A stretch of 57,399 nucleotides of DNA, counting the filler, from Basidiobolus ranarum (taxonomy: Eukaryota): assembly GCA_040143965.1 (NCBI GenBank). It is 4 parts of 4 records of this genome, joined end to end, with 100 filler letters (N's around TTAATTAATTAA, not from the genome) between each part and the next. Parts side by side here need not be neighbours in the genome. Positions count along the whole stretch, not along the records: positions 14,421 to 28,720 come from JASJQH010007307.1; 3 more parts are not named here. One strand, 5' to 3'. A program made the translations under genes and the position numbers. Position 1 is the first letter of the stretch, and each line of letters starts with the position of its first letter. Under the pieces are notes generated by a model. It was not told the origin of the DNA. It searched no databases and saw only the letters and a list, made by a program, of their open reading frames with translations. Of the stretch, positions 2,365 to 43,164 are shown one piece after another.

Positions 2365-3700
2365 ACGACTGACAATGTCGAACTGTCAACAAAAACTATC
2401 TATTTCCTACTGAACTCAATCTCTGAAGATAGACAAGTATTATACAACTTGGTTGCAACACCAATCAAGAACGTGGAGAAGCTCGGTGAAATAGTATCTC
2501 CTGGAGACACTTGATTTTGTTGTTACTAACTATCTAGCCAATGGTCGACTTGAGAGACTTCCTTTACTAGTCTTATCTCATAAATTCCATGTAGAAGAGC
2601 AGTGAATGGATTTCCACATTGAATTATGCTTTAAAGCCATAAATCATCGAGTCAAATATAAATGAGCACTGCCCATCAACCTATACATCTATTTCCCACT
2701 AATCTTCATATAGAACCGAAAGTTTTCCGTTTTCTTTTGATACCTTGATTTATCTTGCCACACATTCTTCTAACCCATTCTTCCCAACCCCAACCCTATT
2801 AGTAATCATGAGTGACATAAGTCCCCCTAAATATGAGCAACAATCATACTACAGTCCATATCCTCCATCACCTACTCAGAGTTACCCTGGTGATGGAAGT
2901 CAAGCCCCCAATTATCAGGGCTCTCAAGGGCCCTACGCTCCACCACCACAAGGTGATAACATACACACAACCTCTGTCATCATAAATACCACTAATCATA
3001 CCTTCTCTCAATAGGCTACTACCCCCCTCAACAACAACAGCAACCCCAAACTATAATCATTCAACAACAACCACAGCCATCAGTAGATAAAGGAGAAGAA
3101 TTATGCGTAGGCTGGTGAGTTCATCTGTTTCATTGTAGTTGAGGTATCTTCTAACAAAATTTTTGAAATGTTAGCGCTGTGGGTGCTACCCTGTGCATGC
3201 TGTTTGACATGTGCTTAATGTAACATATTATTAAATAAATGAGTCTTTGGAGTTATATAGTTATATACTACATCACTTTATATCAAATTATTTCCATGAT
3301 TCAAAACCAGAAATCAGTTGAAACAGATCAATATTAGAGTGAGAGAAAGGAGTTAAGAGTGGCTAATTCAACACTATACACTTGACTTTCTACTCTATGT
3401 TTACGTAATCTTCGTACTTCAATGCAAAATTTCAACCAGAAAGCACTACCCATCTTGTATTGAGAAGACTGACAACACCGAACTGTCAATTAAGGTGGGA
3501 TTAAATTCGATTTCCTTCTTGACCCAACCAAGAAGCTCGGTCAAATAGTATCTTCTGGTGATATTTCTTGATTTTGTTATTGCTAACTGATAATCCAGCC
3601 AATGGTCTTTAGAGACATCTTTTACTAGTCGTATTTTACAATATCTATATGGAAGACACTAGATTTAGAGCTGTGACTAGATTTTCCGCATCGACTTGTG
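2365..3700 (+). repeat. Duplicated CYSTM upstream region (~2365-2630 vs ~3465-3700)
   Basis: Shared blocks gactgaca..gaactgtca, agaagctcggt.aaatagtatct.ctgg, cttgattttgtt.tt.ctaact, agccaatggtc, tttactagtc. Confidence 0.8.
2808..3223 (+). CDS. CYSTM-family Pro/Gln/Tyr-rich tail-anchored protein (copy 1)
   Basis: Exons 2808-2952, 3015-3114, 3175-3223 give MSDISPPKY...YYPPQQQQQPQTIIIQQQPQPSVDKGEELCVGCAVGATLCMLFDMCLM*. Confidence 0.8.
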
Positions 3701-3840
3701 TTTCTTAATATTCAGTTCACTGCTATATGGCTACAAAACACATGTATTTCTCACTTGCTTCCATATAGTCAATCAAATCGGTTTTCAGCCTTTATTGATT
3801 TTGCTATTCGTTCTTATCGGATAAAATACTATAAGAAATC

Positions 3841-4200
3841 ATGAGTGACACTCCCAAACAACTTTCCTACAGTCTATACCCTCAATCGCCTACTTAAAGC
3901 TACCTTGGTGACTGAGACCAATGAGCTTACGCTCCTCCACAAAGTGACCACGTGCACACAAGATCCGACATGTACTAAATATTATTTCTCTGGCTAGGCT
4001 ATTTCCCTCCTCCGCCGCAGCAGTATCCCAACATATATTATATATTGCAACAATAGAAACCAGATGGCCTTGAAACTCAGTATAGGCTGGTGAGAACTTA
4101 CTACATTGTCTTGTCCAGGTATCTTCTAACAAACCTTTTAAAACGTTCATGATATTCGTCTTACCCTGTGCTGGATGTGCCACAGATGTTGGATGTGATA
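3841..4200 (+). pseudogene. Degenerate CYSTM paralogue (copy 2)
   Basis: MSDTPKQLSYSLYPQSPT* aligns with copy 1 but has TAA where copy 1 has CAG. Remnant exon/intron boundaries (taggctat, ataggctggtgag) and a duplicated upstream region are present. Confidence 0.75.
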
Positions 4201-4213
4201 TATTAAACAAGTG

Positions 4214-4260
4214 ATTATGCGCTTCATTATACGTTTTATTATACGCTTCATTATACGCAT
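4214..4260. repeat. 12-bp minisatellite (ATTATACGCTTC-like, ~4 copies)
   Basis: attatgcgcttc attatacgtttt attatacgcttc attatacgcat. Confidence 0.7.
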
Positions 4261-4646
4261 ATCGGTTGATTCTCATGACTAGATTCGTTGGAAAATAAGC
4301 AAATCACTTTCTTATATAGATCAACACTATTCTAACACTACATATATACTGCTCCATCTGCTGATCCAATCGCGGGATTTCTATTTAGAAGAGCTGTGTG
4401 CACTAGATTTTCCAGAAATTCCCAATTTTCTTTTCAATGCCAAGGATCATCAACATTTGCACCCGACAGAATATTACCGAACAGAATATAAATAAGCATT
4501 CACCTACTCGCTCCTCTGAATATTTCTCTCTCATTTTCGTATAGATCAATAGCCAATAAGCTCCCACGTCCGCCTTTCATCTTAGTCTCAACCTTTCACT
4601 TTCGCTCTTTCCCTTACTACTTGTTTAAATAATCTTCTTTTGAGCC

Positions 4647-5120
4647 ATGAGTGAATACAACCAAGACAAAGGATACGCTCCTCAGCAGCCCTATCCCGCC
4701 CAAGCTTATGGTCAGCCTCAGTATGGCCAACAGCCTCAATATGGCCAACAACCTCAGTACAACCCATATCCTCAACCACCTGCCCAAGGTTACTACGGTG
4801 ATGGTGGTCAGGCTGCTAACTACCAAGGCGGTCAAGGTGCTTATACCCCTCCTCCACAAGGTAGTCCAGTACATAACCTGCTAGTTATCATCAGTGTATA
4901 CTAAACAATTGCTCTATCTCTAGGCTACTATCCTCCACAACAGCAACAGCAACCTCAAACTGTAATCGTCCAACAGCAACCAGCTGACAAGAACGATGGC
5001 TTATGCATGGGCTTGTAAGTGGACCAGTCTCTTTATCTTCTGGACAGAATTTCTTCTAACATTTATCTTAATAGTGCTCTTGGTGCTTGCTTGTGCTGCT
5101 GCTGCGACATTTGTTGTTAA
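4647..5120 (+). CDS. CYSTM-family protein (copy 3, canonical Cys-rich tail)
   Basis: Exons 4647-4860, 4924-5014, 5075-5120. QPQYG repeats, then DKNDGLCMGFALGACLCCCCDICC*. Confidence 0.9.
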
Positions 5121-14320: not shown

Positions 14321-14420
14321 NNNNNNNNNNNNNNNNNNNNNNNNNNNNNNNNNNNNNNNNNNNNTTAATTAATTAANNNNNNNNNNNNNNNNNNNNNNNN
14401 NNNNNNNNNNNNNNNNNNNN
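14321..14420. other. Assembly spacer (N with TTAATTAATTAA linker)
   Basis: 100-nt N run containing a six-frame stop linker. Different genes are truncated on each side. Confidence 0.97.
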
Positions 14421-21164: not shown

Positions 21165-22673
21165 TCAATTAGAGATTTCTAACGAGTCGTAATGTACTAA
21201 AGCATTCATCACTGCGTGGTAATCTTCTTGGTTTACCTATAATGTGGTACATGTTAGTTTGAAAGTTCTCCAAATAAGAATAATCACAAAGTCTTACCAA
21301 AAGGTAATCGGTGTGATAGGTGGTAAGATAAAAGATAGAAATTCCCAGATTTTTGAGTCTTTCAGTGCAATCACGTACGATACCACATTGTTCTTGAAAT
21401 CTCTAGAGTTAGAGTCGTTTAAATAATATTCCATGTTAATGTGCAGAACATACCAAAGGCAAATGCCACATCTTCGATCTTAAGGATTGACCATGCTCCA
21501 CCGCAAAAGTTAAGACTACCGGGTGGAAACAAAGAAAGGCACGGTTCACTTAAAATTAGTGAAGCATTCTCCGAGGTACGTGTAAATGAGAAAAATCGAT
21601 CCCCCCGTTGTCTAAATATTAATTATATCATAAATGAACAATGCTAAGAAGAGTTGACACAAATGATGTGAATACCTATCATCACTAAAGAACAGTAGAT
21701 TGATCAATGGGATGGACATGGTGTCTTGAACCGCTTCTACACTTCCTGCCAATGATGTAACATACACTGGGCAGTCAGGAAAACTTACAACACGACGTAA
21801 GTTGGTAATCTGTTCAGAGGTAGCGATCTTCGATAGGAATTCCGAATCCGTCCATTGCTTTTCATTTGTAGCATCGCCATCTTGGAACTGATGAATTTGC
21901 ATAGATAAACTAGAGCCATTTACACTATTCCTTTTGGCTGTTCATTTTTCCAAGTTAATTTTTAGATGGTACTTAGGATATGGTATATAATTGCTTGGTA
22001 CCGTTAAAAAAAGGCGATTGAATATTGGATATCGCATCTTCGAATAACTGTGATTCGTCTCTAATGACAAATGTTGGAGGAAAACACGACAACGCTTTTT
22101 TAACAAGTTCTTCTGGAATCTAAACCACGTCAAGATATAAGTTATTGAGGTGTATATTGAGAGTAGAAATGTTAAATGACTAACCAAGGTATAATCTGTT
22201 TCGTACGTAGATAATTGAAGTATAGAAATGCCGTTATTAGCTAGTGGAACAGCAATAGAATGCAGCACGGGGACTTGTTGAGAAAAAAATCGGTTAATAA
22301 CAAAGATAAAGATATTACTACAGTGACTATGATTTGTACCAGTTCCACTCTGTCCAGTTTGAATTTGAAATGGAATGAATACTGTCGAGGAGACACCTAC
22401 TTTAGCTTCTGCAGGAAAGGTCTCAATCGCTGCTTCATCTATGATTAGGGAGATACTCGAGGGAGTTTCTGTAAAACTAAAAAACTCCTTCCCTCTAAAA
22501 AAAAGGAAAAAGTGTTATTTGTTTGACGAACGATGCAGGTATATCATTCAGCGTTACTCGTTGGGGAATAAAAGCAATTTGATGATCGTATGTGCGCATA
22601 TAGAGAGATTTTCCTTCGCGATTGAAGCGAGTTTGAGTCGATAAGGTAAAATACACACTTCTAAGTCCGACAT
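21165..22673 (-). CDS. CASTOR/GATS-like four-ACT-domain protein
   Basis: LEVCILPYRLKLASI..HTIIKLLLFP..FFSFTETP..ISLIID, SIAVPLANNGISILQLSTYETDY, PLINLLFFS..FFSFT, AFEQCGIV..ISIFYLTTYHTDY are colinear with human CASTOR1 motifs. Splices without stops. Confidence 0.85.
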
Positions 22674-22761
22674 TTGACTGAAAACATAAACTATTAGAAA
22701 GTTGACAGCTTCTTGGAGGCCTAAACTTAATTTTACACCCAACCCAAATTTGAAGCTGCGT

Positions 22762-22771
22762 ATCACGTGAT
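22762..22771. promoter_or_regulatory. ATCACGTGAT E-box palindrome upstream of the CASTOR-like gene
   Basis: Lies ~90 bp upstream of the start. The same 10-mer occurs at 2224-2233 and 19584-19593. Confidence 0.45.
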
Positions 22772-25700
22772 TTTAGGATTAATATGAGCTTTAGATATAT
22801 ATTGTGGTCATTTCCACAAATGAGAGAGAAATAAAGCTTCTAGATCCTGGAGTGGAGAAAAATCGGTTTTCTGATTATCGCGATTTGATATTACTGGGGA
22901 TTCTAATGTTTGAGTAACATAAAAAGCTTAATTAGAGCACATGGTTGAGGAATCGAAAAAAGTAATACTCTGGGAAAATATATGCTAAATGAAACTCTTG
23001 GCTTTCACACCTCAAATCTATGAGTTCATTAATTAGACTGACAAATGATCCTTCACCATCAAACTACATGTGCTTTATCGTGATAGTGTGGAGGCAAACT
23101 CAATAGTGAACAAAGGCAGGTGATGAAGTTTTTCTACCCAAGTTCTGCGGATTTGTCTTTTAGTTATTTCAAATATATAACCTTCATATATTAATTGTAA
23201 TTGGCATAAAGGGTCTGAATGTTCGAATTTTGTTCGTTTAGACACGAATTTAATGCTGTGACCATGCAAAGTATCCTCGAATTATGTATCATCTTTAGAT
23301 GCAACAACTTAATTTTTGTAGCAATATTGCGCATTATTGGAGTCACTCTGATTTCATCATGAGAATGTGAAGTTATATTTGATCAAAGTGCGCTTCAAAC
23401 GTTATTCTACGAGATACCAGAACAGCGACTGATCTATATAGAGCTGAGGGTCTAACTCCAGAGTAGCATCCTGCTATGAATCTTAGCAAACCTAATACCT
23501 GTGGGTAAGACTGTCCTTACCTAGTTGGAAAGTTTGGGAATTTCAACCTGACCATTAAATAGGTTTTAATGATATGTATTGACACATGCACACATCTTAA
23601 GCATACATATATTGTGTGAAATCAATAGTATGCAGATTCATAAAGTAAGCATGTATATCAATTTTCTATAAACTAACCAGAACTACACAGAACCTGAATA
23701 TTCACCTGGTAAATGTCAAGAATCATCAATATAAGTGTAAAAACACCATCTGAGGAGATTTTAGGATACATATGGACGGAACTCGCTTAGTGTAAATACT
23801 ATTGTAAACCTGATTGCTACTCTCTATCACTGCGAACTGAATGTGAGAGCGATATGGGGAACTTCAATCAATTTTCTAAAAGAAAGCATGAGATCATTGC
23901 CTATCTATGCCAAGGTTAAGAATATAGGAAAGAATAGTGCCAGAATCTAGTATTAATTATCAATCAACAGTCGCATCTGACCGGAAACGCTGATTGAGTA
24001 AAAATCCACATGTAACTCCAAAACTGACGGATACATATTTCATACATCACAAGGTTTTCACTATTTACCATGGCACTAGTTGTCACAAACACGCGATACG
24101 ACCAGCTCTCGTCCAATTTTAGAAAGTATACCGTTTTCTTACTGATCACAGTTTGCCTTAAAGTTGGCACATTTGTTTTGTTACACCTGCCCATAGGCTT
24201 TCACAACATTGCAGGCTAGTTTGATGGACAAGCTGTGATCGGAGCACAAACTCTGTATGTTAGTTAAGAGACAATATTTAATACTTAATTTGTAGCGAAT
24301 AAGCATGTGTGGTCGGAACGCTATACCGATTGCTTAACTCCCTTACTTAAAACTGATACTCAATATTTGAAACTTTTCAAATTCTGTATTAGGAGTATCC
24401 ATATCTGAAAATTAGAAAAAGTAGCCAGAATGCCGAGCTACTGTATCACATCACGATTGATTGGAGTAATAAATCCAAAGTTAACCTGGTAAGTTGACTA
24501 ATCAATCTATGCTAATATGGATTTGATTCACGGCTTGTGCCACCTAAAATTTATGATTTGATAGTTACTGGTTATGGGAGGGTGAAGAATTTGAAGTAAC
24601 AAGGTAATAATGCGATGATCTCGTGGTGTCACTATCTTGATCACTGAGAATCAGTAAATCTTCTGTGCGCCAAGAGGGTTCAACTATGGAATAAGCGTAA
24701 TGCCCAGCCGATTTCTGGAATCGATTAAGCCCCATGGCCCTCCCCCACCTTACCCCCTCACTCTCCTCCTATCGCCTACCCCGCCCCACATTCTTTCATC
24801 TCCGTTTTGGCTTACTTTCAAGAGGTATGACACGATTAACTTGTTCCAGCCGGAAGGTTTCTTGCAAATGACCCTCAATCTCAGATGGCTTGGCTTGATT
24901 ACCTCCATGCTATCACCTGCACATTCTATCATGTCATTATCTGCAGTTATGATTTTACTGAGGTGTGAGCGCTTTCAAATCACAGGTTACATGCTCTTTG
25001 AGCAACAAAATCAGCCAATGTTAGTCTCGATACTGGGCGGGAGATGATACTATTTCTAGTCATCGGACCCCATTCTAAAACTCGCCTTGTCAAAATGAGA
25101 AGCTTGCCTAAACCAGATTTCGCCGGGCTTGAGGAGGGTAGGGTGCAGTGATGAGGGGGTTGGAGGAGAAGAATGAGGATGAGGTCATACAGATTAATCA
25201 TAGTCAATATTTGCCAGCAGGTTTACTTAGAAATGGATTAATCATGTGATCCGTAATTGATTATGAAATGGAGTAGGGGAGGGGAGGGGAGTCAAGGGAC
25301 CTGTTAAACCCAGGTTGATTGTAAACACAACTGACTTCACTAGTGTCACTGTGCCGAGCTTTAGTGTGAATTGTGATCTCGGATGCAAATCATGTTCACC
25401 ACTTCGTAGCCACTAAGCAGTCGACATAGTCATCGTGGCCATTTTTCCAAAAGCAGTGGATGCATCGTGGTGTCCTTTATGGGTCGCATTAACAGCCAAA
25501 AGCACAAACAAAAGTTACATTTAGCACGTAACTCGTGCTCCGCAGCGGCTGAGTTCTGATCAAGGGTGTATCTGTTGAGAAACCAAAGCACAAACACTCC
25601 AATTTTATCTCATCGTTTTACAAATTCGCTAGCAAACGGAGACCGAGTATTTGGATGATCTTGGGGATCAGCATTCGCAGCGATGATTCTCATTCATCTT

Positions 25701-25962
25701 GTGCTCAACTCCAAGGCGAATGGGTAAATCACGAACCAGTTATCTACCAATCTATATCATTATTGTAGTATTAGCAGGATGTTGATATTGACCAAGCCAA
25801 TATGCCCTACTAACGATCTAAAGCCCTGAAGCTACGGTATTGAAGCTACGGTATGGAAGTGAGTTCTGAATTAGGAAAATCGAAAGCGATCAGTGTTGGG
25901 GTTTATCTCTGACGGGCAGCGTTGTACCGGAGCCTATGCGAATTGGCCGCTGGACTGAAAGC

Positions 25963-26126
25963 AGCGAATTTCTGTTCCAGGAAGGTCACGAGCCTAACTC
26001 TTTTCGTAAGTGATTGAGCTGAGACTGAAAGCTGAAGTGTAGAGTAAATACGCGAATACGTGCCTAGCTTGAGCCAGATATGTTTCAAATTCATTGGGCT
26101 CAAATTGTATACTACCAATCCTTATC
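25963..26126 (+). repeat. Left arm of inverted repeat flanking the HMG gene
   Basis: Reverse complement of 28561-28720. The first 111 bp are identical; mismatches follow inward. Confidence 0.95.
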
Positions 26127-26751
26127 GTTTGTGAGTCTAATGATTCGGCACACATTGGTATCGTGGTTGGGTTAGTTTCAAGTTAAATATAGACATTGAA
26201 AATCTGGTGCTCTAGACTATTACCTGGCTCAGAAATAGATATCCGGAAATAATTTGAATCATTACTCAGTGCACAGGTTACGATTGTGACATACTGGAAC
26301 TTAAGAGTTGTATTCATGCTAACGTTATTAAGTGCTCAAAACCTGTCGAGCGATCAGTTACATGAAAAAATCATCCTAATGTAAAATATCCCCTCGATGT
26401 ATAAAGGGAGGAGGGTTAATCACAGTAATTCGTTTATATAAAAAAGAATCTATATCATAATATATAAGTTTAGAATATAATCAATAATATGCACATTTAT
26501 GAGAAAGAGTATACAGGTTTAAAAGTGGGTAAAATACAAATATACCAATGAGTGGAGATGTATTTTGCAAAACGATTATGGAAACGAATTATGGTCAACA
26601 TACAATCTTTCCATCAATCAATGTTGATATTCGGTTAAAACCCATGCAAAATGCAATGCTATGAAGTATGCACAAAATGGCACCTGTCGATTTATCACAC
26701 CTTGAACACTTCAAATTTAAGACTTTAGACTCAGTGCCTTGTAATATTTTA

Positions 26752-27783
26752 TCACATCTCAAAATTATCGGTGTTGTCGTTTTGATAACTAGTCTCGCCT
26801 GACCATGACTGATCAACAGATGACGGGGTTGATTGGGAAAACTGGGACGTGGTGGTAAGATTCGTACTCAGAGGCCAGAGTCCAGTATCGAGTAGTGTTG
26901 TATTGTAAGGGTACATCGAGAGCTGATGGTCACAATAGCCTCCTTGAGTAATTGAGGATGTTAAATTCAGTAGCTCTGACGTTAACACATTCTCATCCGA
27001 TGGCAATGGGGCTATGATTTCGAATTTTGAGTTTTGCCCAGTGGTTCCATTGATTGATAGTTGTGGGTTTTCCGAATATTGCAAAGCATAAGTTGATTTT
27101 TGCGGAGTCTGCTGATCTTGTTTACAATTACTCACTGGTGTACCACGAACTTGAGTGGATTTCTTTGAATTTTTTCGCTTGTTAGATCTTTCTGGCGCGT
27201 ATTTATAGTTTGGATACATTTCTTTGTGAATGCGCTTTTTGTCCTCTGCTGATAGTTGATACCTCTCCTTGACATCAAATGGTGCATCTTTCCACATTTG
27301 TCCGATTACTTTGGACACTTCTGAATTGGAAATCCCAGGGTTTTGGGCAAAAACACTAGCCTGAACATCTTTTCGAAAGAGCAAGAACGGGTTCAACGGT
27401 CTTGGAGGCTTTAAAATTCTCTTCACAGTTTCTGTATCTTCTTCAATGTGAGTGGAGGATCGTGGAGAGTTGGACTGTGACGTGGTTGCAGCTGTGATCT
27501 CACATTTGGGAGTTGGGATAATATTCACTGCTTGGGATTGGAGTTCTTGATAATGACAATGAGGAATAAGAACGGGAATGTAGCCCTGGGGAACCACACA
27601 ATATGAGTAGTTTTGCATAGCTATGGATTGTGATATGTCTTGAAAGGTGCTACTGTAGAAAAAACTCAATGGTATACTGTTGGACACGTTCAATACAAAA
27701 GGGTTATTTGGATATAGCATTGATATTCCTACTAACGAAGGCAGCGGATACTTCTCGTTTGTAGTAGTGAAAACTGAATCCAT
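26752..27783 (-). CDS. Intronless MATA/SOX-type HMG-box transcription factor (sexM/sexP-like family)
   Basis: KPPRPLNPFLLFRKD..NPGISNSEVSKVIGQMWKDA..KERY..HKEMYPNYKYAP plus a basic tail. A TATA-like (TA)n run lies ~110 bp upstream. Confidence 0.92.
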   Translation of the reverse strand: MDSVFTTTNEKYPLPSLVGISMLYPNNPFVLNVSNSIPLSFFYSSTFQDISQSIAMQNYSYCVVPQGYIPVLIPHCHYQELQSQAVNIIPTPKCEITAATTSQSNSPRSSTHIEEDTETVKRILKPPRPLNPFLLFRKDVQASVFAQNPGISNSEVSKVIGQMWKDAPFDVKERYQLSAEDKKRIHKEMYPNYKYAPERSNKRKNSKKSTQVRGTPVSNCKQDQQTPQKSTYALQYSENPQLSINGTTGQNSKFEIIAPLPSDENVLTSELLNLTSSITQGGYCDHQLSMYPYNTTLLDTGLWPLSTNLTTTSQFSQSTPSSVDQSWSGETSYQNDNTDNFEM

Positions 27784-28560
27784 TCCAATACTATCTGTAA
27801 GCTTTCTTCAAAGATATAGAAACAGAGTAGAAGGAAGAAATTGAATCTTAGTGGAAAGAATATGATTGCTGTATCGGTAGGAGTCTGATGTTAATATATA
27901 TATAGATTGAAGCTTGTACTACTCTAAGATGATCATTCACCTACCATCTGATTTGCTTAATCGAATATTAATGATGATAATTTAAACAGTATATAAAATA
28001 TAATATTGCAAGACATGAAGAATCAATGGAAAGTATAGTGGGCTGCAAAAAATCCGAAACATATTCTTAGTTCCACTTCCCTTGGTACGTGGCACGAATT
28101 GAGTCTAATTTGGGAAGGCATAAATTTTGATATCCCTTTTTAGTCATTCAAGTCCAAATTCTTGAAGCCTGTTTGAATTGAAGGCATGTTGACGTCATTC
28201 GAAGTATACTCCATAGTATTATAAAGTTGTGTGGTACAACAAAGAGTACTAACAACGACATAGAGAGTTAATAAACTCCGCGATAACCGAGCAGCGGTTG
28301 TTGTTATCGTGGATATCAGCCCAGTGGTTACATTATCATCAGAGATCATCGACCGTCACGATATATTTCTTGAAGTAACTGAATGCGTATCACACTCAAG
28401 GTACACAGGTTGTTACTATCATTTTAGGCTTAACTAGTTTAGCCAAAGTATTTACTATTTTATCTGGTACGTAACAAATCTGCCCTATTACTCAAGTTGT
28501 GTTATTAGCCTCAACTTCCCTAGAACAACTCAGTCCAATAATTTCCGATTAGCCGCATAT

Positions 28561-28720
28561 GATAAGGATTGGTACCGATTAAAGCCTGATGAATTTGAAA
28601 CATGTCTGACTCAAGCTAGGCACGTATTCGCGTATTTACTCTACACTTCAGCTTTCAGTCTCAGCTCAATCACTTACGAAAAGAGTTAGGCTCGTGACCT
28701 TCCTGGAACAGAAATTCGCT
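28561..28720 (-). repeat. Right arm of inverted repeat, truncated by contig end
   Basis: Matches 25963-26126 in reverse, and identity is still perfect at the last sequenced base. Confidence 0.95.
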
Positions 28721-28820
28721 NNNNNNNNNNNNNNNNNNNNNNNNNNNNNNNNNNNNNNNNNNNNTTAATTAATTAANNNNNNNNNNNNNNNNNNNNNNNN
28801 NNNNNNNNNNNNNNNNNNNN
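28721..28820. other. Assembly spacer
   Basis: N run with TTAATTAATTAA. Confidence 0.97.
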
Positions 28821-40947: not shown

Positions 40948-42272
40948 TATCTTCGTAGAGAGTGAATTCATCATGTATAAACATAACCTGTTGTAAAGTA
41001 ATAAATCATCATCCAACATATTCAGCTTAAGGTTAGGTAAACACGATACACCAATATTTCGACGAATCATCTTCTAGTAATACACAGCGAACCAGTTATG
41101 ATGATCTGGTCACCAAACCCAAGTCTAACCTAACATGGTGATACAGGTTTTGACAGTTCGGATTAGGAATTTCCCGGGCCATGAGAATATTTGGCAACCC
41201 CGCTTATTGGTCACAAGCTTAATCAGCTGCTACTTCGAAGGATTCCTTTTTTGTCATTCATTCACTAGTTTAATTATTACCTATCTAAATTGGGAAAGCA
41301 AGTTGAGCAAAGATTGTTACCAGTAGTTGGGTTGGGTAGTTTCTAAGTGTACGTGGGATTATGGTCAGAAGCAACCCGGTTGATTCTATCCAGATATTCG
41401 TACCATGAAGTGTGAGGTGGTACACATGTTTGGCAGGTTGCTTTCAATTCAATCAATATTTTAGTATCAAAACCTTCAGTTTTCTTGTCCCCCAATAATA
41501 GAAACATTATCGATATTCTCTATTCCATTCCCTATTCCCTATTTCCCCAATGAACTACTGTACAAATCAAAATTCTCATCAAGTTCGGTGGTTCACTAAC
41601 TAGTGATAAGAATTGGGTTGGCCTATTTGATAGTCTCTGTGAGTTGCTTTGTATTAGTAAGTTGCAGTAGAATATCGTTTGCCACTCACCTTGCGTAACA
41701 AGTACATGAAACCGCTCTTTTCGGGTCTAATCCATACACTGCCAGAATCGCTTTTAAAAAATTGAATTCACCCATTGTATAGAAAAATGTCTCATATCAG
41801 TAAGGATCCAATCGTGCTCAATTGGGATAGAAATTCACAGTTTGGATTTTATCTAATTTTGTACGATTCATTCATTTGATTATGGAATTTTAAGCGCTAA
41901 TCAAATGGATGTACCTTCTTCTCACTATATTTCCATGTTGCTTTCAACTAGTTTTTTTTTCAACCATACTGACTAAGGTTTCGAAACTTCAACTGAACCA
42001 AATATACAGATATAAACCAAGGACACCATGAAGTTTCCTTGTGAATAAAACATGTAATAGAAAGATAAAAAAACCATGAAAAGGCTAGAATTATATTGCA
42101 TGCAATATCTGATACCATGCACACGCTTACTTCTGATTAGGCTAGAACATATTTGACTATATAAATGGGCACTCAAGCTTGAGCACAAAATCATCTTTTC
42201 ATAATATGCAACAAGTATATGTAATTTCTGTAAATCCAGTATATGCAATGGACTTGGGCCAGAGGCTGTTGG

Positions 42273-43058
42273 TGTTGAAATTAGCATAGCCTAAACACCT
42301 ATATAGGTATATTTAGCTTAGTATTTAGTTACCCTATATCTCACTAATATATTACCCATTGTTCTCAATAGGAATTTACATAGAATATTGACACCAAATT
42401 AGAAGCTCTTAGATATATAGATTTTTCAACCTTGTTCCAGAAGCCCCAAACTTTGCACACATTTCTCTAATTCTCCAAACCACATCCAACAGGCTCCTAA
42501 GTACTTTAAAAAGTGTTGGAGGATCTTGACATAATGGGGGTAGACTTTATATATTAGAGGCAACTTTTGATAGTGTTTTAGGTTACTTTATTCTTAAGTG
42601 ATTATGGTGACCTATATAGTAGAGAAGTAAATCAATTGTTTGAGATATTCAGGAGTTTGGGTAATAAGCTATAATAGATAAGTGGGGGTATTAAGACATA
42701 CTTGTTATTGTTGAAATTAGCATTGCCCAAGCACCTATATAGTCATATGTAGCTTAGTACTTAGCTATCTTATAATTCACTAAGTTATTATCTATTATCC
42801 TCATGAGGAATTTACTTAGAATATTTTTACCAAATTAAAAGTTCTCCGATATATAGACTTTTCAAACTTGTACTAGAAGTCCCAAACTTTGCACACATGT
42901 TACTGCGACTTTCCTTAACATATTCTACTTGCTATATTGTTTACATCTTGACAAAACTATATATGTTAACTTTCTACTCAATAAATCAATAAGTGAAACC
43001 CACCAATTCCTCTAATTCTCCAAACCACTTCCAACAGGCTGCCAAATACTTTAACAGG
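42273..43058. repeat. Two diverged direct copies (~42273-42510, ~42709-43058) of a CpG-poor, AT-rich element; probable decayed transposon
   Basis: Shared tgttgaaattagcat..cacctatata..aggaatttac.tagaatatt..cccaaactttgcacacat..ctctaattctccaaaccac.tccaacaggct. Copy 2 has a ~110-bp insert, and the contig ends here. Confidence 0.75.
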
Positions 43059-43064
43059 TTATGA

Positions 43065-43164
43065 NNNNNNNNNNNNNNNNNNNNNNNNNNNNNNNNNNNN
43101 NNNNNNNNTTAATTAATTAANNNNNNNNNNNNNNNNNNNNNNNNNNNNNNNNNNNNNNNNNNNN
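43065..43164. other. Assembly spacer
   Basis: N run with TTAATTAATTAA. Confidence 0.97.

Follow-up and report, generated by a model that had tools for sequence, protein, structure and literature searches.

A MATA-class HMG-box gene between inverted repeats at a contig end in a Basidiobolus-related fungus

The locus described here lies in a 57,399-nt stretch of fungal DNA, referred to below as the window, and consists of a single intronless gene for a high mobility group (HMG) box protein of the MATA class, enclosed by the two arms of an inverted repeat. We read it, with moderate confidence, as a native MATA-class HMG regulator gene lying between the arms of a short, passive inverted repeat at which the assembler came to a halt. 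The window is made up of four contigs of one fragmented assembly, arranged in order of falling length (14,320, 14,300, 14,244 and 14,235 nt) and joined by three linkers of the form N44-TTAATTAATTAA-N44 at 14321-14420, 28721-28820 and 43065-43164. Since the window consists of separate contigs joined end to end, adjacency across the joints has no biological meaning. The HMG locus occupies the right end of the 14.3 kb contig at 14421-28720, whose 14,300 nt agree with the length on record for the source contig of the HMG protein. It comprises the features given below.

26752..27783, minus strand: intronless coding sequence (CDS) of the HMG-box gene, including the stop codon; 343 amino acids (aa), MATA/SOX class
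27202..27408, minus strand: HMG box, residues 126-194; Pfam PF00505 at 2.4e-20, supported by the model confidence (predicted local distance difference test, pLDDT) and by best PDB matches to SRY and SOX17/18
27565..27603, minus strand: N-terminal motif YCVVPQGYIPVLI at residues 61-73, which marks a subfamily of HMG proteins in early-diverging fungi
27893..27904, minus strand: TATA-like (AT)n run within the spacer, some 110-120 nt before the ATG; read from the sequence
25963..26126, no strand: left arm, 3' of the minus-strand HMG gene; 25963-26073 equals the right arm and 26074-26126 is the decayed inner part
26127..28560, no strand: spacer of 2,434 nt, in which the CDS has 625 nt on its 3' side and 777 nt on its 5' side
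28561..28720, no strand: right arm, 5' of the HMG gene and cut by the contig end; 28610-28720 equals the left arm
28721..28820, no strand: artificial contig joint, N44-TTAATTAATTAA-N44; the sequence beyond it is an unrelated contig

The predicted protein matches PF00505 with 73.2 bits against a cut-off of 25.4 (E-value 2.4e-20), and the match covers profile positions 1-69 of 69. AlphaFold2 models a three-helix box with a pLDDT of about 98 over residues 130-195. SRY leads the single-box matches in the PDB (9.8e-12), followed by SOX17/18 (3.5e-11 to 3.6e-10), while HMGB1 reaches about 1e-6 to 1e-7. The two rows above SRY belong to chains with two boxes, namely an SRY/HMGB1 chimera and ABF2, and the window protein carries one box only. 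Its sequence places it in the sequence-specific MATA/SOX/TCF class and not with the HMGB/UBF type. Its closest named relative is K7432_004522, a hypothetical protein of Basidiobolus ranarum encoded on a 24-kb contig; identity is 41% across residues 7-218 and 57% within the box. This alignment begins at residue 7, and therefore supports both the start codon and the intronless gene model.

The CDS has a GC content of 0.413 and a GC content at third codon positions of 0.395, alike other genes in the window, and the non-coding parts of the spacer are at 0.33 and 0.35. Coding GC in the window (about 0.41-0.42) is lower than the 0.4865 that a passage of PMC7466969 gives for the genes of Basidiobolus meristosporus, and for this reason the host is described here only as an early-diverging fungus related to Basidiobolus. 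The TATA-like run upstream of the ATG may be a promoter element. At 90% identity the protein forms a cluster of one member from one contig, and this single-member cluster argues that the gene is not a multiplied mobile cassette. The initial annotation had recognised one convincing gene in the spacer of about 2.4 kb, and this description holds. Apart from the 343-aa HMG open reading frame (ORF), the ORFs of at least 60 aa in the spacer and arms are without a Pfam match, and among the small ORFs (30-59 aa) in 22800-26760 and 27780-28720 none of 69 has one.

Judged from sequence comparison, the gene is a MATA-class factor of a large, widespread subfamily and not a singular sex gene. An exhaustive HMMER search returned 6,617 proteins at E-values up to 1e-3. 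The motif (Y/F)F(I/V)PxG(F/Y)xP(V/I)L(V/I) was counted over the 150 best 50%-identity cluster representatives, and 36 of these carry it 46-127 aa before the box. Within the motif, P65 and G67 are invariant in alignment A2, and P70 and L72 are conserved to at least 90%; the region is modelled within a small folded module with a pLDDT of 70-75. Motif carriers cluster on a tree of HMG boxes (12 changes versus 42.5 in shuffles). This tree (166 boxes, 79 columns, FastTree) is poorly resolved, with 13 of its 159 inner branches starred, and on it the window protein stands beside P0002 and P0019 without a starred clade, a position from which the sex-locus type is not decidable. P0019 is an unnamed 72-aa HMG-box fragment that shares 67% identity with the window box and 63% with that of B. 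ranarum, and its sequence shows it as a putative third member of a Basidiobolus-type clade.

The nearest Atlas clusters (0.92) carry 'MATA-HMG' or Glomeromycotina-style gene names and are mostly from Mucoromycota, and the Atlas neighbours of the family member P0104 are ascomycete 'Mating type protein' clusters; both are leads only. With B. ranarum as the closest named relative and Mucoromycota 'MATA-HMG' clusters as the nearest in the Atlas, the earlier assignment of the DNA to an early-diverging fungus is borne out. Of 8,000 candidates scored in a profile search with A2, 19 matched at E-values up to 1e-10, including one Ambispora protein; weaker matches to named proteins may have fallen outside this chosen cut-off. 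None of the 19 is named SexM or SexP, a silence that is uninformative given that the search missed most A2 members. Searching with the box only (residues 118-205) gave 6 candidates. The N-terminal module may define a subfamily of MATA-HMG proteins in early-diverging fungi, and no description of it was found in the passages of the papers cited here.

Gapped BLAST of the window against itself aligned 25963-26126 with 28720-28561 in inverted orientation over 164 columns, with 92.7% identity and an E-value of 1.5e-65. The match between the arms is far above chance level. The inverted repeat 25963-26126 / 28561-28720 described in the initial annotation is thus real, as BLAST returns the same coordinates. 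A repeat search without gaps recovered the arms as 25963-26105 and 28578-28720 (143 nt, 96% complementary). The arm has two zones, because a run of 111 difference-free nt is improbable at a uniform rate of 12 in 164 (P = 2e-4). In the outer zone (25963-26073 / 28720-28610) all 111 of 111 positions are identical, and the inner zone of 53 columns has 41 matches, 8 mismatches and 4 gap columns from a 4-nt gap. Inward of these 53 columns the similarity between the arms fades out.

The right arm still matches perfectly at the final base of the contig, 28720, which directly meets the artificial joint at 28721-28820, and the contig was correctly seen to break inside this arm. The right arm is cut off there by the contig end, and the arm is at least 164 nt long. 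The left arm lies 625 nt past the HMG stop codon and the right arm 777 nt before the ATG. Only one orientation of the spacer is present in the contig. Neither BLAST nor the repeat search found extra copies of the arms in the 57 kb window, which is small and says little on genomic copy number.

The arms are non-coding. Two mirrored ORFs of 53 and 83 aa (25994-26155 on the minus strand and 28438-28689 on the plus strand) run outward through the arms in the same frame and have the common end ...QARHVFAYLLYTSAFSLSSITYEKS. They are without a Pfam match, a coding arm was rejected on that ground, and the two ORFs are probably not coding. An RNA element was also rejected as the identity of the arms, which have no Rfam match, contain no tRNA and fold like shuffles, with folding energies on either strand no better than those of shuffled sequences (z 0.09 and 1.38). 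Rfam gave no match at the gathering score anywhere in the window, nor at E-values up to 1 in 25000-28720, and the tRNA search found none.

The surroundings of the locus were examined through a Pfam scan of 43 of the 54 ORFs of at least 60 aa on the contig; the HMG ORF was scanned separately, and the 10 omitted ORFs are of 60-68 aa and lie left of 22.5 kb. Three further features were recorded to the left of the HMG gene.

14.4-15.2 kb: alcohol dehydrogenase (ADH) fragment, from the Pfam scan
17.6-18.4 kb: unknown 281-aa ORF, from the ORF scan, without family
21172..22772, minus strand: CASTOR/ACT-domain gene, multi-exon, with two ACT_7 domains and a Castor1_N-like start

The last of these, predicted to encode a protein of the CASTOR/GATS-like amino-acid-sensor type, is the nearest recognisable neighbour of the HMG gene. 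Between the two, ORF and Pfam scans found no recognisable gene over about 3.9 kb (22900-26750). The GC content of this interval is 0.40, near coding level (0.449 for 25001-26000), and it contains a C-rich tract at about 24735-24790 and G-rich tracts at about 25130-25175 and 25268-25291, the latter an AGGGG array of 3.4 units. It could be a domain-less gene, decayed sequence or a further part of the repeat arm.

Among the scanned ORFs, no TPT or RNA helicase gene occurs in the 12.3 kb left of the HMG gene or elsewhere in the window, and no transposase or reverse transcriptase occurs on the HMG contig or on the other three contigs. A second HMG gene is absent from the four contigs of the window. 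An autonomous terminal inverted repeat (TIR) transposon was rejected, as no ORF in the spacer has a transposase domain. Tandem repeats on the contig are limited to four trivial short arrays. The third contig is also repeat-ended, with direct repeats within 42267-43054 and its end at 43064, which fits an assembly breaking at repeats. These direct repeats are spaced 436-545 nt apart, 42267-42462 pairing with 42703-42898 at 82% and 42461-42509 with 43006-43054 at 90%. The first contig contains diverged direct repeats (2826-3073 / 4734-4982 at 71%, and 2477-2598 / 3531-3656 at 78%), which may be an old local duplication; two ORFs scanned in this repeat region (2477-3073 / 3531-4982) gave no Pfam match.

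Several known systems invite comparison with this locus. Komagataella switches mating type by flip/flop inversion, and the mouse Sry gene occupies a short stretch of unique sequence enclosed by the arms of a long inverted repeat. The window locus is like that of mouse Sry in having inverted arms about 2-3 kb apart that enclose an SRY-class HMG gene, but differs in that its visible arm is at least 164 nt with no evidence of a large palindrome. Riley et al. are said to have described an expansion of HMG genes in Glomeromycotina in 2014. Passages of PMC3834313 and PMC7490403 describe the SexM-like HMG genes of arbuscular mycorrhizal fungi as multi-copy, dispersed and not syntenic with TPT and helicase genes. 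The window gene resembles these SexM-like/MATA-HMG genes of Glomeromycotina in its Atlas neighbours, the profile match in Ambispora and the N-terminal motif; unlike in that expansion, only one such gene lies in the window. The same papers, in the passages on Mucorales and Microsporidia, give the order of the sex locus as TPT, the HMG gene sexM or sexP, and an RNA helicase (PMC3834313, PMC7490403). A single HMG-box gene as candidate determinant in an early-diverging fungus is common to that locus and ours. The window gene, however, has neither TPT nor helicase in the 12.3 kb to its left or in the window, and its right flank lies beyond the contig.

In Sclerotinia sclerotiorum, 250-bp identical inverted repeats flank 3.6 kb that include the HMG gene MAT1-2-1, and both orientations are documented in the sections of PMC3574095 on the inversion. 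Of the two repeat copies, one is located inside MAT1-1-1 and its partner overlaps MAT1-2-1 at the 3' end, with the result that inversion truncates a MAT gene and alters transcripts (PMC3574095, same sections). As far as those sections describe it, the window locus is similar in having an identical short inverted repeat around an HMG gene (111/111 within 164 columns, spacer of 2,434 nt) and arms that are not transposon-like. It differs in that its arms are non-coding and stand 625 and 777 nt from the sole gene, one orientation is present and there is no alpha-box or other second MAT gene. Passages of PMC4238957 describe how, in Ogataea (Hansenula) polymorpha, a pair of MAT loci separated by about 18 kb exchange chromosomal positions, of which one is active and the other repressed. 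Those passages show inversion between inverted repeats acting as a switch in a self-fertile fungus, and inverted repeats are what the two loci have in common; by the same account they are unlike in that one gene sits in the middle of a 2.4 kb spacer here, with nothing to swap and its position barely altered. With neither two swapping MAT loci nor a repeat-in-gene layout, the locus lacks the features that make inversion a switch in Ogataea and Sclerotinia. The proposal in the initial annotation of a flip/flop or palindrome-maintained sex cassette is thus unsupported: no TPT or helicase gene was found left of the gene, the HMG subfamily is large, a second gene is lacking and the arms lie 625 and 777 nt off the CDS.

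A native MATA-class HMG regulator beside a passive short inverted repeat is the explanation we favour, with the moderate confidence expressed at the outset. The HMG protein would most likely be a DNA-bending transcriptional regulator, possibly with a role in sexual development, as with its relatives. Its gene would be a self-contained transcription unit contained wholly within the 2.4 kb spacer. The repeat, presumably passive, would consist either of a local inverted duplication of short length or of a pair of copies of a short element, dispersed or non-autonomous. Its outer zone would be kept identical by gene conversion, or would appear so through assembly collapse, and the repeat would be the cause of the assembler stopping at 28720. 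The segment could be inverted if the arms recombined from time to time, in which case promoter, CDS and 3' region would move together and the gene would shift by only about 150 bp. Because such an inversion would move the whole unit, with no second mating-type gene to exchange, it would not constitute a mating-type switch.

Several points weigh against this explanation. The step in identity from 111/111 to 41/53 is the expected footprint of arm-to-arm gene conversion, and conversion between the arms would make arm recombination, and hence inversion isomers, plausible; the footprint has to be read with the caveat that bubble-collapsing assemblers may erase sparse differences between repeat copies. 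The arm runs off the contig and may be far longer than 164 nt. To the left of the left arm, 3 kb without a recognisable gene could be further arm, and the right flank beyond the contig end could hold a TPT or helicase gene. The relatives compared include no named SexM or SexP sequence. Finally, Sclerotinia provides a precedent for regular inversion driven by identical inverted repeats of 250 bp on either side of an HMG MAT gene, as the sections of PMC3574095 show.

These points lead to three other biological explanations and one technical one. Regular flipping of the 2.4 kb segment by arm recombination, as in Sclerotinia, would make the locus a developmental or mating-related switch, in which orientation would tune expression through read-through or antisense transcription or through position effects of the flanks. 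The geometry is near that of the MAT inversion region, with at least 111 bp identical around 2.4 kb, the gene is MATA-class, and the identity step suggests conversion between the arms; Basidiobolus is homothallic or heterothallic depending on the species, as stated in a passage of PMC7466969. The contig nevertheless holds a single orientation, and the arms touch no CDS and their ORFs have no family, so that no gene is truncated. Promoter and terminator travel with the gene, and a second MAT gene to swap is lacking, unlike in Ogataea as portrayed in the passages of PMC4238957. We regard a switch of this kind as decidedly unlikely. Quite improbable, too, is that the visible 164 nt are the innermost part of a long palindrome like that of mouse Sry, with arms of many hundreds to thousands of bp homogenised by conversion. 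Identity rises outward to 100%, the match of the right arm is unbroken where the contig ends, the 3 kb beyond the left arm lack a recognisable gene, and a long perfect inverted repeat would be expected to stop a short-read assembler. A short two-copy repeat resolved as one graph edge, however, gives an identical contig end, and there is no direct evidence for arm sequence past 164 nt.

Pack-MULEs are a class of non-autonomous TIR elements that carry captured genes, and the locus could be a DNA element of this type, with the arms as its terminal inverted repeats and the HMG gene as captured cargo. A TIR element with a captured HMG gene was also the alternative offered in the initial annotation. 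The terminal repeats are long, highly similar and best conserved at their outer ends, there is no internal transposase, as expected of a non-autonomous element, and the contig ends where a multi-copy terminus would be predicted to branch the assembly graph. On the other hand, neither the outer termini nor a target-site duplication is visible in the contig, and the HMG cluster at 90% identity has one member from one contig. The gene itself is undamaged, its N-terminus is conserved and its composition is native, and no further arm copy occurs in 57 kb, which is weak evidence. An element of this type is in our view unlikely. An assembly artefact, in which the right arm would not truly adjoin the spacer, is barely credible. 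The repeat does stand at the extreme end of a contig in a fragmented assembly, but the inner zone of the right arm is diverged (41/53) and continuous with the unique spacer, where the copy produced by a fold-back or mis-join would be identical and adjacent. This diverged zone, continuous with unique sequence, means that a second copy truly lies at this place, at least as regards the inner part of the right arm. A native HMG gene flanked by a passive repeat accordingly remains the preferred account of the locus.

Section 3.5 of a 2023 review describes the mating genetics of Zoopagomycota as 'still not well understood' (PMC10386755), and within the full-text library searched no paper was found that describes an HMG sex locus in Zoopagomycota. 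With sex determination in this group open and a clear homologue in Basidiobolus, the MATA-class HMG gene is a reasonable candidate. It is very improbable both that recombination occurs between the arms, be they a short repeat as in Sclerotinia or the inner edge of a long converting palindrome, and that the MATA-class HMG gene they enclose is the sex determinant, or one of the sex determinants, of this Basidiobolus-related fungus; if true, no inversion or palindrome system associated with mating type would have been found earlier outside Dikarya. The locus appears to be an ordinary transcription-factor gene beside a repeat, and as such is a modest lead and not evidence for a new switching system. 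The N-terminal module is possibly of more general use, for classifying the HMG genes of early-diverging fungi.

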